NCBI GenBank assembly: GCA_030614005.1
Contig: JAUWKS010000003.1
Coordinates: 30,001-62,000, forward strand
DNA length: 32,000 nt
Direction: 5' to 3'
Source of the DNA: Candidatus Heimdallarchaeota archaeon
GTDB taxonomy: Archaea > Asgardarchaeota > Heimdallarchaeia > JABLTI01
In this document: positions 3,255 to 32,000 of the stretch, piece by piece
Layout: each line of letters opens with the position of its first letter
How positions within the stretch are numbered: the stretch's first letter is position 1
Notes under the pieces: generated by a model
The model's input: only the letters and a program-made list of their open reading frames with translations
Told to the model about the DNA's origin: nothing
Database searches by the model: none
Translations under genes and position numbers: made by a program

Positions 3255-4248
3255 TTGCAAATTAAAAGAAAATTAATAGTTACAATAATGTTACTTTGTT
3301 TTATAATTCCTCTATTTAGTTAAAATAGTATAACACCTCAACCAATGGTACAAAACGTTATCGGTGCATCATTGGAGTTAGAACAAAAGTGGAACTATAC
3401 GACAAGTGGAATATCTGTAAGTGCAACACCAACACTGTTCGATTTATACGAAGATGGAACAATGGACGTAATTTATGGAACTAATAAAGATGTGACTTGT
3501 CTTGATGACCAAGGAAATCTCAATTGGTCATATTACACTAATAGTGTAGTTAGGGGATCACTTGTTGTAGTTGACGTAGATAATGACTATAAACCAAACA
3601 TTGTCGTTGGTGTTAGTGATAGTTTGCGATTTTTTGATTATGATGGTTCATATATGAGAAATACTGGAACTGGCTATATTATGGATGCCCCATCTATTGT
3701 TGATTTTGAAGGTGATGGAGAATGGGAATTCTTAGTACCAAGCTATCTATTCTATGATGGTATTTACTGTATTAATAGTAATGGATCCATAAGATGGTCT
3801 TACACAGATATTTCATCACCTGGAACACCTGATAGAGTGTATGGTACTCCTACTGCTTGTGATCTTAATGGAGATGGAGTAATTGAAGTTCTCTTTGGTT
3901 CATGGGATGGATATCTTTATTGTCTTAATGAAACTGGGCATTTCCAATGACAATATTCTCGATGGAGAAGAAGTTATTGCTGGAGCAGATGGTTTTATTA
4001 CCAATCCCAACAACGCGGATACCGATGGCGATGGTATCGATGATGACATAGAAATTGGCAATGGCACCGATCCAACCGATTCTAGTGACCCACCCGTAGA
4101 GACTCCAACTCCTACCACCACTCCTACAAATACTACTCCTACAGGCGAAGGCTCATTCATTGGTGGTTTTGTTAGTTTAGGTATTGTTTTATCTACTGCC
4201 TTATTTATCATAGCTTCAGTAGAACGTCGAAAGAAATATTACAAATGA
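3255..4248 (+). pseudogene. Disrupted membrane-anchored surface protein: signal peptide, FG-GAP/PQQ-like beta-propeller, remnant DxDxDG repeats, Thr/Pro linker, C-terminal TM anchor
   Basis: TTG at 3255 opens a signal peptide (MQIKRKLIVTIMLLCFIIPLFS) cut by an in-frame TAA at 3321-3323. The propeller frame (DLYEDGTMDV, DVDNDYKPNI, DFEGDGEWEF, DLNGDGVIEV) stops at 3948-3950. The repeats, linker and anchor continue in a different frame to 4248. Confidence 0.8.
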
Positions 4249-4281
4249 AAGAGAAGAATCTCTTTCCATTTTTTTCTTTTT
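4247..4281 (+). terminator. Hairpin plus U-tract after the surface-protein pseudogene
   Basis: GAAAGAGA-agaa-TCTCTTTC (4247-4266), then CATTTTTTTCTTTTT. Confidence 0.6.
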
Positions 4282-4338
4282 ATTAATCGGTTTTTCCGTA
4301 CTCTCTATACTGTACTTTTACAATTTTGGTTTTGTGAG

Positions 4339-4866
4339 TTACTTTGATTTTGGATCTCTTTTTTCCTTACCTTTATTTAAATCAATAACTTCTTCTTTTG
4401 TTTGAGTGATTGGTGATACATCTTGGAATCTTCGATTTGTTACAACATAAAGTTCAGCTATACCTTTTTCTGTGAAATTTTTAACCATGCGACCTGAATG
4501 ATGACCAAAGGGCGCAGGATATTGAACATCTCGGAAAGTTAATCGATAATATGTTGCAAGATGTGCCCATTCATTAAGTTCATCAGGATGCTTGACAGAT
4601 TTAGGAGCTGTTTCTGCTAAGCCAATCCAATCGTACCAAGCATGTGCATCTTCAGGGTCACCAGAGGCACGATCTGTACTTTGGTCCATAGTACTCCCGC
4701 TGTAATTTGCTGTGATTTTAATACATAACCATTTACCGACAAGTGCAATCACTCTGTCAGAAGTACATGGTCCATCTTCATCGAAAGCGGAACCCCATTC
4801 ACTTTCCACATCCTTTACAAGTTTCTTAATTATGAATTTTTCTAGTTCTGAAATATCAATAGGCAT
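4339..4866 (-). CDS. Hypothetical protein, 175 aa
   Basis: ATG preceded by an AAGGAG RBS and protein-like composition. No family recognised. Confidence 0.65.
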   Translation of the reverse strand: MPIDISELEKFIIKKLVKDVESEWGSAFDEDGPCTSDRVIALVGKWLCIKITANYSGSTMDQSTDRASGDPEDAHAWYDWIGLAETAPKSVKHPDELNEWAHLATYYRLTFRDVQYPAPFGHHSGRMVKNFTEKGIAELYVVTNRRFQDVSPITQTKEEVIDLNKGKEKRDPKSK

Positions 4867-28816: not shown

Positions 28817-29251
28817 ATGAAAGAAATGTTTGACCAACTAGATAAAGAAATAATTGATCTATTAAGAGACGATTCAAGAATTACAAATATTCAAATTGCT
28901 AAAAAAATTAAGAGAAGCGAATCAACTGTTAGGCAAAGAGTAAATAAATTAGTAGAGAAAGGAATAATAAAAAAATTCTCTATTATGGTAGATCCAATTG
29001 CTTTAGGTTTCAATACCATTGCATTTATCGGAATTAATACTCATCCTAGTCGTTTACTTAAAGCAATAAAAGCATTGAAAAAAATAGATGAAATAATCTT
29101 CATTTCCACAACCACAGGTGATTATATGATTCTTTGTCAAATCTGGGCAGAGGATGGAGTTCATTTATCTGAAGTAGTTGATAAAATAGAAGAAATCGAT
29201 GGTGTTCTAGAAGTTTTACCATCAATAATCCAAGAACGGCATAAAGAGTAG
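28817..29251 (+). CDS. Lrp/AsnC family transcriptional regulator
   Basis: HTH LDKEIIDLLRDDSRITNIQIAKKIKRSESTVRQRVNKLVEKGIIKKF and a RAM domain (TTGDYMI). Confidence 0.93.
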   Translation: MKEMFDQLDKEIIDLLRDDSRITNIQIAKKIKRSESTVRQRVNKLVEKGIIKKFSIMVDPIALGFNTIAFIGINTHPSRLLKAIKALKKIDEIIFISTTTGDYMILCQIWAEDGVHLSEVVDKIEEIDGVLEVLPSIIQERHKE

Positions 29252-29275: not shown

Positions 29276-30226
29276 CTATTTGTCTTTAATGTAATCCAAT
29301 GGATAATGCTTTTCGATTAAATTTTTTATATTCACTTCAGTATGATTGTTAACGGATCTTACCATTTTATCAAGTAAGCTTTTGACTATTTGAACTGCTC
29401 GTGCTGCAGGATCCATTTCACCAACAAATATGCCAATGACATTTTTCTTCTCCTTTATGAGAACTAATTGTTTATTATCTACTTGAAGGAGAGATTCTGC
29501 AGTCTCAAATCCAGCCATCTGTTTAATAAATTTGATTATCTCATAGCGACCTTTTTTGAACAATGGAACATTTTTAGCTTGTGTCTTTGGTTTTCCAAAG
29601 AGAGTTGTTTCTACTTCCATTCCTTCACTTTTGAAGAAATAGTAACCATGGATTTTAACAATGTTCTTAGGAATATCTTCGTCTTTACATAATTCCAATG
29701 TTAACCAATCCCAAGATTCGAAGAGCATTGCACCTGTTAATGCTGAGCATCTGGTAAAATTGTATTTTCTTTGCAAACGTACTAGTTCACCGAAATCAAT
29801 TATATTTAATATCTCATCTGTAGAAGCAGCATCTTCAAGATCTATTTTATTTGAAATAAATAAAATAGGTGCTGTCTTATTAAAAGAGAGAGCTCTATTA
29901 AATTCCTCCGAAGCTAATTCAAATCTGCCCTTATCTGCAGAATCTAAAACAAAGACAAGTCCATCTGCGCTTGTAATAAATTTCTCCCATAAGGATTCTC
30001 TCAAAGGAGTTTGTCCCCCTAAGTCGTACACTATAAATTCCAAAGATCGGTATTTGTATACTTCAATATTAACTCCGAAAGTAGGTCGAGTAAGAGTAAA
30101 TTCTGATCTTAGTATTCTTTTAACAATTGTTGTTTTTCCTGCACCATCTAAACCAACGATAGCAACTGATTTCTTTTCAGCATTTCCTTCTTCTTTTGCT
30201 TTAGTTAATCTTCTAAATAAAGACAT
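29276..30226 (-). CDS. Arf/Sar-like small GTPase with a C-terminal extra domain of about 130 aa (longin-like)
   Basis: G1 GLDGAGKTT, switch I PTFG, G3 DLGGQ, G4 NKID, G5 CSA, plus DGLVFVLDSAD. Confidence 0.9.
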   Translation of the reverse strand: MSLFRRLTKAKEEGNAEKKSVAIVGLDGAGKTTIVKRILRSEFTLTRPTFGVNIEVYKYRSLEFIVYDLGGQTPLRESLWEKFITSADGLVFVLDSADKGRFELASEEFNRALSFNKTAPILFISNKIDLEDAASTDEILNIIDFGELVRLQRKYNFTRCSALTGAMLFESWDWLTLELCKDEDIPKNIVKIHGYYFFKSEGMEVETTLFGKPKTQAKNVPLFKKGRYEIIKFIKQMAGFETAESLLQVDNKQLVLIKEKKNVIGIFVGEMDPAARAVQIVKSLLDKMVRSVNNHTEVNIKNLIEKHYPLDYIKDK

Positions 30227-30351
30227 ATGATTAATTCCCTTTGTTTGTGAAAAGATTATTTATCACTCAGTTTCCCTCAATGAATTATTTTGCAAGGGAA
30301 TTCTATATATTATCAGAAATAGCTCTAATACTAAAAGTTTTAGTTTTGGTT

Positions 30352-30478: not shown

Positions 30479-31405
30479 ATGAGTCAAGATTATATTATTG
30501 AAGTTAGAAATTTAGTTAAAAAGTATGGCTCAGTAGAAGCACTTTCAGAAATATCATTTAAAATAAGTAAAGGACAAATTTTTTCTCTTCTAGGTTCAGA
30601 TAGTTCTGGAAAAACTTCATTAATAGAAATTTTAGTAGGTCTGCGAAAACCAACTTCCGGAGAAGCCTTTGTTTTAGGTTTTAATATTAATAGTAAAACA
30701 GAGATGCGTGAGATTAAGAAAAGAATCGGCGTATTACCACAAGAATTCAAAACACATGATAATCTTACTGTGAAAGAAAATATTTTGTTTTGGGGAAAAA
30801 TGTATGACAAAATGGTTGACCCCATAGAATTAATGAAACTATTGAAACTTGATGAAGTAGCAAATGTTCGATATAAAAAACTGTCAAATACATTGAAACA
30901 AAAAGTTGGGATAGCTACTACTCTTGTAAGTGATCCTGAGATTATCTTTCTTGATCAACCTACTGCTGGTCTTGACTATTATATTAAGAAAGAAATTTGG
31001 CAAGTATTGATGGATTTACGTGAACAAGGAAAAACTATCTTTCTAACCTCAAATGATGTATTAGAACCACAAGCAATCGCCGATAGAGTTGCAATACTCC
31101 ATAATGGTATAATAAAAGATATTGGCTCACCCAATGAATTGATTGATAGATATAGTAGTGAAAAGAAATTCATTATAAGATGTCCAAACAAGGATATAAC
31201 TAAGAACGCCTTGAAAGCTTTACAGGAAATCGAAGTTGCAGAAACCGAAACTGGTGATTTAGTTGTTTCAAGCGATGAGATAACCCTACTAGAATTATTA
31301 GAAAAATTAGAGAAATTTAATGTTAAATATTCAGATATAATTACTCAAAGTCCTTCTTTGAATGATGTCTTTCTAATTTTAACAGGAGAAGAATTACGTA
31401 AATAA
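30479..31405 (+). CDS. ABC-2-type ATP-binding protein with degenerate catalytic motifs
   Basis: Walker A GSDSSGKTS, Q-loop VLPQ, signature LSNTL, Walker B IIFLDQP, H-loop position LTSN. Confidence 0.9.
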   Translation: MSQDYIIEVRNLVKKYGSVEALSEISFKISKGQIFSLLGSDSSGKTSLIEILVGLRKPTSGEAFVLGFNINSKTEMREIKKRIGVLPQEFKTHDNLTVKENILFWGKMYDKMVDPIELMKLLKLDEVANVRYKKLSNTLKQKVGIATTLVSDPEIIFLDQPTAGLDYYIKKEIWQVLMDLREQGKTIFLTSNDVLEPQAIADRVAILHNGIIKDIGSPNELIDRYSSEKKFIIRCPNKDITKNALKALQEIEVAETETGDLVVSSDEITLLELLEKLEKFNVKYSDIITQSPSLNDVFLILTGEELRK

Positions 31406-31430: not shown

Positions 31431-32000
31431 TTGAGTGAAGATATTGTCCAATCTGATGAAACACCCCCAAACCAATTCAAATTGTTCATCAGAAAAATAA
31501 AAGCCTTTTTCCGTCCAGTTGGAAATAGCTTAAGGAGAATATCAAATCAAATCGGTGGGCTTAGTTTAGGTTTTTTCAGATCACCTGGATTAATTTTTCT
31601 CACAATTGTTCTACCAATCATCTTAACATTACTATTTGGAGCACTATTTGGTAGTACAATAGATACAAATTATCAGTTAGATGTTCTCGATAAAGATCAA
31701 AGTGATGCGTCAATACAGTTTACCGATTATTTGGGAAATGACACTGGTTTGATGATAGAGGTGCTTGATGAGACAAGTATTAACCCAGTCGAATGGTTGA
31801 AAGAGAATACTAAAACTATTTTACTGGTAATACCAATGAATTGGGGCGCATTTATTAACGATTCAGATCAAACCGATTTAACAGTTTATTATGATCATTC
31901 ATCATCATCTGCAAAAACTACTTTGAAAATAATTGAAGAGGCTGTAATAGAACTCAATTTTGAAATATTAGCAATAGATAATACTTTGGGCGTAGAAACT
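31431..32000 (+). CDS. ABC-2 type permease (runs off the window end; not in the ORF track)
   Basis: GGTGA RBS, 6 nt spacer, TTG start. Translation MSEDIVQ...FFRSPGLIFLTIVLPIILTLLFGALFG...LDVLDKDQSDAS, open to the window end. Confidence 0.85.
   Translation, partial: MSEDIVQSDETPPNQFKLFIRKIKAFFRPVGNSLRRISNQIGGLSLGFFRSPGLIFLTIVLPIILTLLFGALFGSTIDTNYQLDVLDKDQSDASIQFTDYLGNDTGLMIEVLDETSINPVEWLKENTKTILLVIPMNWGAFINDSDQTDLTVYYDHSSSSAKTTLKIIEEAVIELNFEILAIDNTLGVET

Follow-up and report, generated by a model that had tools for sequence, protein, structure and literature searches.

A gene at positions 29276-30226 (minus strand) of a 32,000-nucleotide stretch of a Candidatus Heimdallarchaeota genome (contig JAUWKS010000003.1, positions 30,001 to 62,000; this whole stretch is called the window) encodes a protein in which an Arf-family G domain is joined to a C-terminal longin-fold domain. 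Asgard archaea are known to join small GTPases to longin or roadblock domains, and the protein is a new form of this habit. The fusion is an old and obligate one with a narrow distribution. Its best explanation, which we hold to be somewhat better than an even guess, is that the protein would act as an Arf-like, GTP-triggered membrane switch that carries the longin domain as a docking or dimerization platform. The gene and its parts are as follows.

29276-30226, minus strand: whole gene, 316 codons plus stop codon (29276-29278), ATG start
30191-30223, minus strand: N-terminal amphipathic helix, residues 2-12 (SLFRRLTKAKE), no Gly2; helix predicted for residues 3-12
29690-30181, minus strand: Arf-family G domain, residues 16-179, from Pfam, PDB sequence match, and structure matches
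30128-30154, minus strand: P-loop GLDGAGKTT (G1), residues 25-33; K31 and T32 present in all 46 sequences
30062-30091, minus strand: switch I TRPTFGVNIE, residues 46-55; T49 invariant
30047-30052, minus strand: tip of the interswitch hairpin, Y59-R60; invariant or near-invariant in the fused family only
30011-30025, minus strand: switch II DLGGQ, residues 68-72, with the catalytic Gln72
29840-29851, minus strand: G4 motif NKID, residues 126-129; N, K, and D invariant
29741-29749, minus strand: G5 motif CSA, residues 160-162; S161 and A162 invariant
29654-29689, minus strand: linker, residues 180-191 (CKDEDIPKNIVK); no helix, coil according to DSSP
29306-29653, minus strand: longin-fold domain, residues 192-307; beta-beta-alpha-beta-beta-beta-alpha-alpha (AlphaFold2/DSSP)
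29279-29305, minus strand: C-terminal tail YPLDYIKDK, residues 308-316; invariant P309-L310-D311 at 29294-29302

The open reading frame is a genuine gene and not a chance frame. It has a Pfam Arf match, its full-length homologues form more than 110 protein clusters (305-329 residues), and the ratio of nonsynonymous to synonymous substitution rates (dN/dS) is low. Compared with the closest orthologue the G domain has a ratio of about 0.10 and the C-terminal domain (C-domain) one of about 0.20, and both halves of the gene are thus maintained as protein by purifying selection. It might be argued that the two-domain frame is an artifact in which two genes have been joined by an assembly or sequencing error. 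The chance of this is negligible, since the same uninterrupted architecture and length are found in all these clusters and in 63 genomes of independent assemblies, the architecture is also present in metagenomes from four studies, and selection acts on both halves. DNA nearly identical to 29276-30226 is found in the cold-seep and marine-sediment metagenome contigs of these four studies, which is consistent with a sediment-dwelling Asgard lineage. No RNA data set was listed for the gene.

The N-terminal half appears, judged from its sequence, to be a catalytically competent Arf-family (ArfR-type) G domain with intact motifs. The motifs that had led the initial annotation to an Arf/Arl-like G domain (GLDGAGKTT, TRPTFGVNIE, DLGGQ, LWEKF at residues 79-83, NKID, and CSA) are each found at the expected place. 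The Pfam Arf profile (PF00025) matches with 132.4 bits (E-value 1.5e-38, cut-off 22.3 bits), while the scores for SRPRB, Ras, and Roc are 38.5, 35.5, and 43 bits, respectively. In a genome-wide profile scan this locus obtained 133.9 bits for Arf and 37.1 bits for Ras. The top sequence match in PDB is HodArfR1 (8oul, E-value 3e-29), which aligns to residues 1-178 and thus includes the N-terminal helix, followed by eukaryotic Arf1 and Arl1. When the full-length model was compared with solved structures, the top 50 matches were all Arf or Arl proteins (Z 19.5-21.5, root mean square deviation (rmsd) around 2-3 Å for most of them), and none of these 50 was a two-domain GTPase. The nucleotide-binding residues are invariant across the 46 family members compared. 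The Arf consensus elements (GLDxAGKTT, PTxGxN, DxGGQ/H, LW, NKxD, SA, and a final W-L) are likewise all found, without variation in the family. The catalytic position of switch II is occupied by Gln in 33 of the sequences and by His in the other 13; the latter we take to be the Sar1-type residue. A residue comparison further showed that the Arf hallmarks R76, W80, R101, R153, and W174 are common to Arf-type proteins and missing from the Rag and Ras groups.

The protein starts with MSLFRRL, which had been described as an amphipathic N-terminus lacking the Gly2 needed for myristoylation. This description agrees with the prediction of a helix at residues 3-12, with a hydrophobic moment of 0.56 and a charge of +2. 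Ser2 is found in 45 of the 46 sequences, and positions 3, 4, and 7 are hydrophobic in all of them. In the best 11-residue window the charge is +2 or +3, and the hydrophobic moment falls in the range 0.52-0.71 for most of the sequences sampled, with 0.36 in a single one. Some G-domain residues are invariant or nearly so in the fused family specifically, namely R37 in alpha1, Y59 and R60 at the interswitch tip, R150, R159 (10 of 13 sequences), and D173 in the C-terminal helix. Y59 is present in all 13 intact fused members and R60 in 12 of them, while both positions vary in the single-domain Arf relatives; in the degenerate paralogues described below Y59, R60, and R150 are mostly lost. In Arf-GDP the face on which these six residues sit accommodates the N-terminal helix. 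The confidence of the structure model is low at residues 41-49 in switch I, as expected of a mobile switch. Low confidence in switch I and the interswitch is compatible with a GTP-driven interswitch toggle, but is not evidence for it.

The C-domain, about 125 residues long, is, according to its predicted structure, a longin-fold member of the longin/roadblock superfamily, and the superfamily fold may be shared with the roadblock domains. The AlphaFold2 model of the full-length protein has a mean predicted local distance difference test score (pLDDT) of 82 and a predicted template modeling score (pTM) of 0.80, with a pLDDT of about 90 over residues 190-290; for the C-domain modeled alone the values are 87.5 and 0.81. 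DSSP assigns strands to residues 192-199 and 204-209, a helix to 213-236, strands to 242-249, 252-259, and 262-269, and helices to 274-293 and 300-307. This agrees element by element with the order of strands and helices that the initial annotation had read from the last 130 or so residues. There is no helix ahead of the first strand, which points to a longin rather than a roadblock topology. The most conserved residues of the domain are charged (K258, D272, R276, and D311) and reach into the extreme C-terminal tail. In the tail motif P and D are found in 46 of 46 sequences and L in 45, the preceding residue is always aromatic, and the motif is kept in distant members.

A full VIA-align scan of the C-domain model against 48,161 solved chains placed longins at the top, with VAMP7 at Z 11.8 (rmsd 3.4, 111 residues aligned), Sec22 at 11.3, the sigma subunits of the adaptor protein (AP) complexes AP-5 and AP-3 at 11.3 and 11.0, and TRAPP longins at 10.6. 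The alignments to longins extend to residues 126-132 of the model and mostly cover its last helix, while the roadblock matches (Z 8-9.5) stop at around residue 110. For the Lokiarchaeal Rag-like proteins with solved structures, the C-domains obtained Z 8.9 and 8.7. The longin domain of SR-alpha (SRX) is also among the fold matches (6frk_y, Z 9.0; 2go5_1, Z 7.9). A comparison with Swiss-Prot models is headed by coatomer zeta, AP sigma, and Sec22, each of them aligned from its own second residue or from near its start, while roadblock models align only past their first helix. The fold search thus favors the longin topology proposed earlier and gave no unrelated fold. Foldseek E-values for the C-domain are weak (1e-3 to 1e-4), and longin and roadblock matches are intermixed there. 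Sequence comparisons gave no corresponding link. A Pfam search with residues 180-316 at an E-value of 10 returned only noise, without the Longin (PF13774) or roadblock (PF03259) profiles, and phmmer and profile searches of PDB sequences with the C-domain gave nothing meaningful. When the domain was aligned by hhalign to the ten roadblock proteins of the genome the probability was 6.8%, and a feature search of the ESM Atlas reached a best score of 0.80, which is under the useful range. The Pfam profiles Longin and Sybindin had no matches in the genome, but as they had none in control genomes either, this is uninformative. Based on fold evidence without a sequence-profile link, the domain is classed as longin-fold, outside any named longin sequence family.

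When a profile of the C-domain was searched against 1.84 billion representative proteins only 17 were found. The full-length matches are 291-336 residues long and all have an Arf-type G domain in front; the short matches that were checked are fragments, most of them retaining the end of the G domain. The same search found no relatives of the C-domain outside the fusion, neither in eukaryotes nor as free-standing proteins, and the domain seems to be tied to its place behind an Arf-type G domain. Within the phylum it is present in 63 of 399 species-level genomes. These belong to three families of one class, where it is found in 11 of 11 genomes plus that of the window, in 29 of 30, and in 22 of 22; the remaining 30 of the 33 families, including one represented by 135 genomes, gave no match. 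Source names assign members of the fused family to Heimdallarchaeota and Hodarchaeales. The subfamily to which the protein of the window belongs (at least 54% identity) is restricted to its own genome family, with one copy per genome.

A maximum-likelihood tree was made from 63 G domains comprising the small GTPases of the genome, representatives of the fused family, and three named eukaryotic Arf/Arl proteins; the extremely long-branched row C31:31694 was omitted. As a word-based search gave few named eukaryotic proteins, the tree is without Sar1, SR-beta, most Arl families, and labeled ArfL sequences. All G domains that bear the C-domain form one clade with 96/89 support (ultrafast bootstrap/Shimodaira-Hasegawa-like approximate likelihood ratio test), and the fusion has a single origin. 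Joining the long-branched C49b (see below) to this clade was not rejected (approximately unbiased test, p = 0.24). The clade lies within an Arf assemblage (80/81) that includes the eukaryotic Arf/Arl references and single-domain ArfR-like proteins, and it is separate from a Ras-like clade (99/99) and a Rag clade (core 100/96). Among the groups sampled, the G domain is thus placed with the Arf family, as the initial annotation had read it, and away from Rag.

Four genes of the genome carry the C-domain, two of them intact and two degenerate in the GTP-binding motifs.

29276-30226 of the window, minus strand: the gene studied here (C35), G motifs intact
C49:20437-21396, minus strand: C49a, intact, with DLGGH in switch II
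C49:19313-20293, minus strand: C49b, degenerate (GEQGSGKTT, DIGKE, NKKS), tail NID and not PLD
C4:90441-91370 (locus 3442-4371, minus strand, within C4:87000-95000): degenerate (GLTNSGKTS, DLKDH, SKSD), longin domain and P-L-D tail kept

In each of the three families with the C-domain, intact and degenerate paralogues occur together, and the presence of both kinds hints at Rag-style pairs. C49a and C49b are found in tandem, followed by genes for a 267-residue protein (C49:18414-19217, minus strand) and a 173-residue Ras-like GTPase (C49:17731-18252, minus strand). This order of four genes recurs in another genome, and the 267-residue protein has no Pfam match. The cluster is a candidate for a Rag-style pair together with a regulator and a second GTPase. 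The degenerate gene at C4:90441 is surrounded by unrelated housekeeping genes (PFOR, ferredoxin, MazG-like, and RsmB), and its orthologues, 27-30% identical to C35, accompany intact members in all three families. The genome's other two-domain GTPases also have C-terminal extensions, and when these were compared with the C-domain by hhalign, only those of its three true paralogues proved related.

An Arf annotation is frequent for Rag-like proteins of Prometheoarchaeum MK-D1 (PMC10933270), and the protein could likewise be a Rag/Gtr orthologue with a C-terminal roadblock domain that has merely been given an Arf label by annotation pipelines. The layout of a small GTPase followed by a domain of the roadblock/longin superfamily in about 310 residues is indeed shared, a Foldseek alignment of the whole model with LokiRagO (8yl2) spans 303 columns, the C-domains of LokiRagM and LokiRagO were matched with the Z values given above (8.9 and 8.7), and some homologues have faint or weak precomputed Gtr1_RagA matches. 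However, the Gtr1_RagA profile (PF04670) has no match at this locus at an E-value of 0.01, and is also missing from its hmmscan list at an E-value of 1, whereas it matches four further loci of this genome with 57-117 bits. The Rag loci form a clade of their own that excludes the fused family, the identity to LokiRagO is 14% and the superposition of the two domains poor (rmsd 13 Å), and R76, W80, and W174 are present here but missing from the Rag group. The C-domain moreover lacks the N-terminal helix of roadblock domains and has the extra C-terminal helix of longins. The G domain is of the Arf family and not of the Rag/Gtr type, and we consider a mislabeled Rag protein very improbable. The initial annotation had seen in the fusion a single-chain precursor of the GTPase-longin modules of eukaryotes, such as SR-beta/SRX or Arf and the small coat subunits, in which case the present-day pairs would have arisen by fission of a gene that survives here. 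In line with this, AP sigma, coatomer zeta, and SNARE longins are among the proteins that the C-domain matches best in fold, SRX is matched as well, and some members belong by source name to Hodarchaeales, a lineage that has been discussed as near to eukaryotes. The fusion is, however, a single derived clade in the Arf assemblage, it occurs in three of 33 sampled families, no sequence relative of the C-domain was found among eukaryotes or free-standing proteins, and Z values of about 11 at 5-10% identity point to no single eukaryotic longin family. With a derived clade, a range of three families, and no outside relatives of the C-domain, the gene looks like a lineage-specific fusion and not like a retained ancestor. 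The proposal of a precursor is accordingly not supported, and we consider it improbable.

The explanation preferred here is that of a membrane switch with an attached platform. GTP binding would shift the interswitch hairpin of the Arf-type G domain, as in Arf proteins, and this would free the short, unlipidated N-terminal amphipathic helix so that it could settle on the membrane. The attached longin domain would be a built-in platform for protein docking. Through it the protein may pair with another copy of itself or with one of its paralogues, among them the degenerate and probably non-hydrolyzing ones of the same genome, much like the Rag/Gtr GTPases, which are joined through their C-terminal domains, and further partners may also be recruited. 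An AlphaFold2-based precedent exists for the dimerization of Asgard GTPases through roadblock/longin domains (PMC10933270). For the protein itself, we infer membrane binding, the nucleotide-dependent release of the helix, and any dimerization. Several observations weigh against this explanation. No partner gene adjoins C35, unlike in the C49 tandem. The longin call comes from fold alone, sequence profiles linking the domain to neither longin nor roadblock families. As the tree is without Sar1, SR-beta, and labeled ArfL sequences, it is only probable that the fused family belongs to ArfR rather than to ArfL, in the terms of Vargova et al. (bioRxiv 10.1101/2024.02.28.582541). With a pTM of 0.80 for the full-length model, the domains may have a single fixed packing, which would fit a role in cis at least equally well, and the family-specific invariant residues at the interswitch tip and in the C-terminal helix of the G domain suggest a cis contact.

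Such a role would mean that the longin domain acts on its own G domain as a built-in regulator or read-out, dimerization being secondary or absent. It could dock on the face formed by the interswitch together with the C-terminal helix or through the P-L-D tail, and might hold the N-terminal helix or the switch in an autoinhibited state, tune GTP hydrolysis or exchange, or be released upon GTP binding so that a binding surface is exposed. One defined arrangement of the domains, as the pTM suggests, would be in keeping with this. So would the clustering of the residues that are invariant only in fused proteins at the interswitch tip, alpha1, R150, R159, and D173, with Y59, R60, and R150 mostly lost in the degenerate paralogues, and the charged character of the top conserved C-domain residues, which include the C-terminal tail. 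Longin and roadblock domains are also known as GTPase-activating proteins (GAPs), guanine nucleotide exchange factors, and effectors of GTPases, as exemplified by MglB, FLCN, NPRL2, TRAPP, and SRX acting on SR-beta (reviewed in PMC10933270, PMC12290439), and for longin GAPs an arrangement with an arginine finger and a GP motif has been described (PMC12290439). Action in cis is a serious possibility, though on balance a doubtful one. The two ideas could also be combined. An Arf-type switch would then have gained a Rag-like way of working independently in one branch of the Heimdall group, with the longin domain reading its own interswitch face and pairing the active GTPase with a pseudo-GTPase paralogue. 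This is speculative and rather unlikely. If true, this Arf switch would be heterodimeric and bind membranes, a case of convergence that may be called an 'Arf-Rag hybrid', and it would offer a natural covalent model for the way in which longins engage Arf-family GTPases in coats and in the signal recognition particle (SRP) receptor.

In eukaryotes membrane budding is initiated by Arf GTPases, and the standard platforms for regulating small GTPases are longin and roadblock domains. How an Arf switch and a longin domain first came to cooperate is a question in the origin of the endomembrane system. The fused family is a compact natural construct in which an Arf-type switch is locked to a longin domain, and it is present in nearly every genome of three families of the Heimdall group, with intact and degenerate paralogues side by side. 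The protein should be readily expressed for tests of nucleotide-dependent membrane binding, self-association, and cis-regulation. The fusion gives no proof that the eukaryotic modules descend from such a gene. No description was found in the texts consulted on Asgard GTPases of an Arf-type G domain followed directly by a longin domain with a P-L-D tail, of its range of three families, or of the sets of intact and degenerate paralogues. As fusions of this general kind are already known, the value of the family lies in being a tractable model rather than in being a surprise.

In the window the gene is solitary. A gene for an Lrp/AsnC regulator (28817-29251, plus strand) is convergent with it, and an ABC-2 transporter operon starts divergently at 30479 (plus strand). 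These flanks are unchanged in all orthologous loci inspected, down to an identity of 54%. The operon contains genes for an ATP-binding cassette (ABC) ATPase and two permeases and a Ham1-like gene. The ATPase gene is found at 30479-31405 (plus strand) and the operon continues into 31431-32000. The translated ATPase has LSNTL at the site of the LSGG signature, FLDQP at that of the Walker B Glu, and LTSN at that of the switch His, and with these changes it may bind ATP without hydrolyzing it. A frame of 189 residues antisense to the GTPase gene (29661-30230, plus strand) was rejected as a shadow frame, having no support as a gene. Elsewhere, small GTPases are encoded at about 45 loci of the genome (44 matches to the Arf profile and 46 to the Ras profile, with much overlap), around ten of which carry a C-terminal extension of 100-170 residues. 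At least three further Arf-type two-domain proteins (C112:16237, C31:28894, and C74:34988) have extensions unrelated in sequence to the C-domain. A faint Folliculin (PF11704) match was seen in a gene at L018 1-428 (plus strand), about 4.5 kb upstream of a Hodarchaeales-type member of the fused family (subfamily 3, P0091), and this gene could be a candidate for a longin-type GAP.

Fusions of GTPases to longin or roadblock domains have been published for Asgard archaea (bioRxiv 10.1101/2020.10.19.343400; PMC10933270; PMC11914678). Zhu et al. described Asgard Arfs with longin domains at the N-terminus (PMC11914678), and Tran et al. reported the architectures GR, XGR, LGR, RG, LG, LGX, and GXLX for the Rag-like proteins of MK-D1, many of which are annotated as Arf (PMC10933270). 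The MK-D1 proteins, LokiRagO (8YL2), and LokiRagM (9M28) resemble the protein studied here in that a small GTPase is covalently joined to a roadblock or longin domain through which dimerization has been proposed; LokiRagO has been solved as a homotetramer. They differ in having Rag-type G domains, while that of the fused family is Arf-type. In MK-D1 the longin domain moreover precedes the G domain or follows an intervening domain, and a domain placed directly C-terminal to the G domain is a roadblock, while here it is the longin domain that directly follows. The eukaryotic Rag/Gtr proteins (RagA-D, Gtr1/Gtr2) also combine a G domain with a C-terminal dimerization-type domain of the same superfamily, and the pairs of intact and degenerate paralogues, one of them in tandem, recall the obligate Rag heterodimers. 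The fused family, on the other hand, has no Gtr1_RagA match, a longin topology, an N-terminal amphipathic helix, and no Ragulator-type context.

In the SRP receptor an Arf-related GTPase, SR-beta, likewise works with a longin-fold domain, the SRX domain of SR-alpha. These are, however, two polypeptides, and SR-beta is anchored by a transmembrane segment; the best matches of the C-domain do not include SRX, and there is no SRP-receptor context here. The longins of SNAREs (VAMP7, Sec22, and Ykt6), AP sigma, coatomer zeta, and TRAPP are the best fold matches and cover all eight elements (Z 9.5-11.8), but the identity is 5-10% in solved structures (at most 20% for some predicted models), and there is no profile link. 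None of them is fused to a GTPase, and the P-L-D tail is specific to the fused family.

The G domain is best compared with those of the Asgard ArfR proteins HodArfR1 and GerdArfR1 (PDB 8OUK, 8OUL, 8OUM, and 8OUN; bioRxiv 10.1101/2024.02.28.582541), which have the same Arf-family G motifs; their N-terminal amphipathic helix is likewise unlipidated, and its hydrophobic pattern at positions 3, 4, and 7 is also the same. In HodArfR1, Phe3, Phe4, Leu7, and Ile11 dock in the GDP form, and multi-domain ArfRs were set aside when the helices were analyzed (Vargova et al., bioRxiv 10.1101/2024.02.28.582541). While work on ArfRs has so far dealt with single-domain proteins of about 180 residues, the fused family adds an obligate longin-fold domain and a P-L-D tail, and it has invariant residues of its own at the interswitch tip and in the C-terminal helix.

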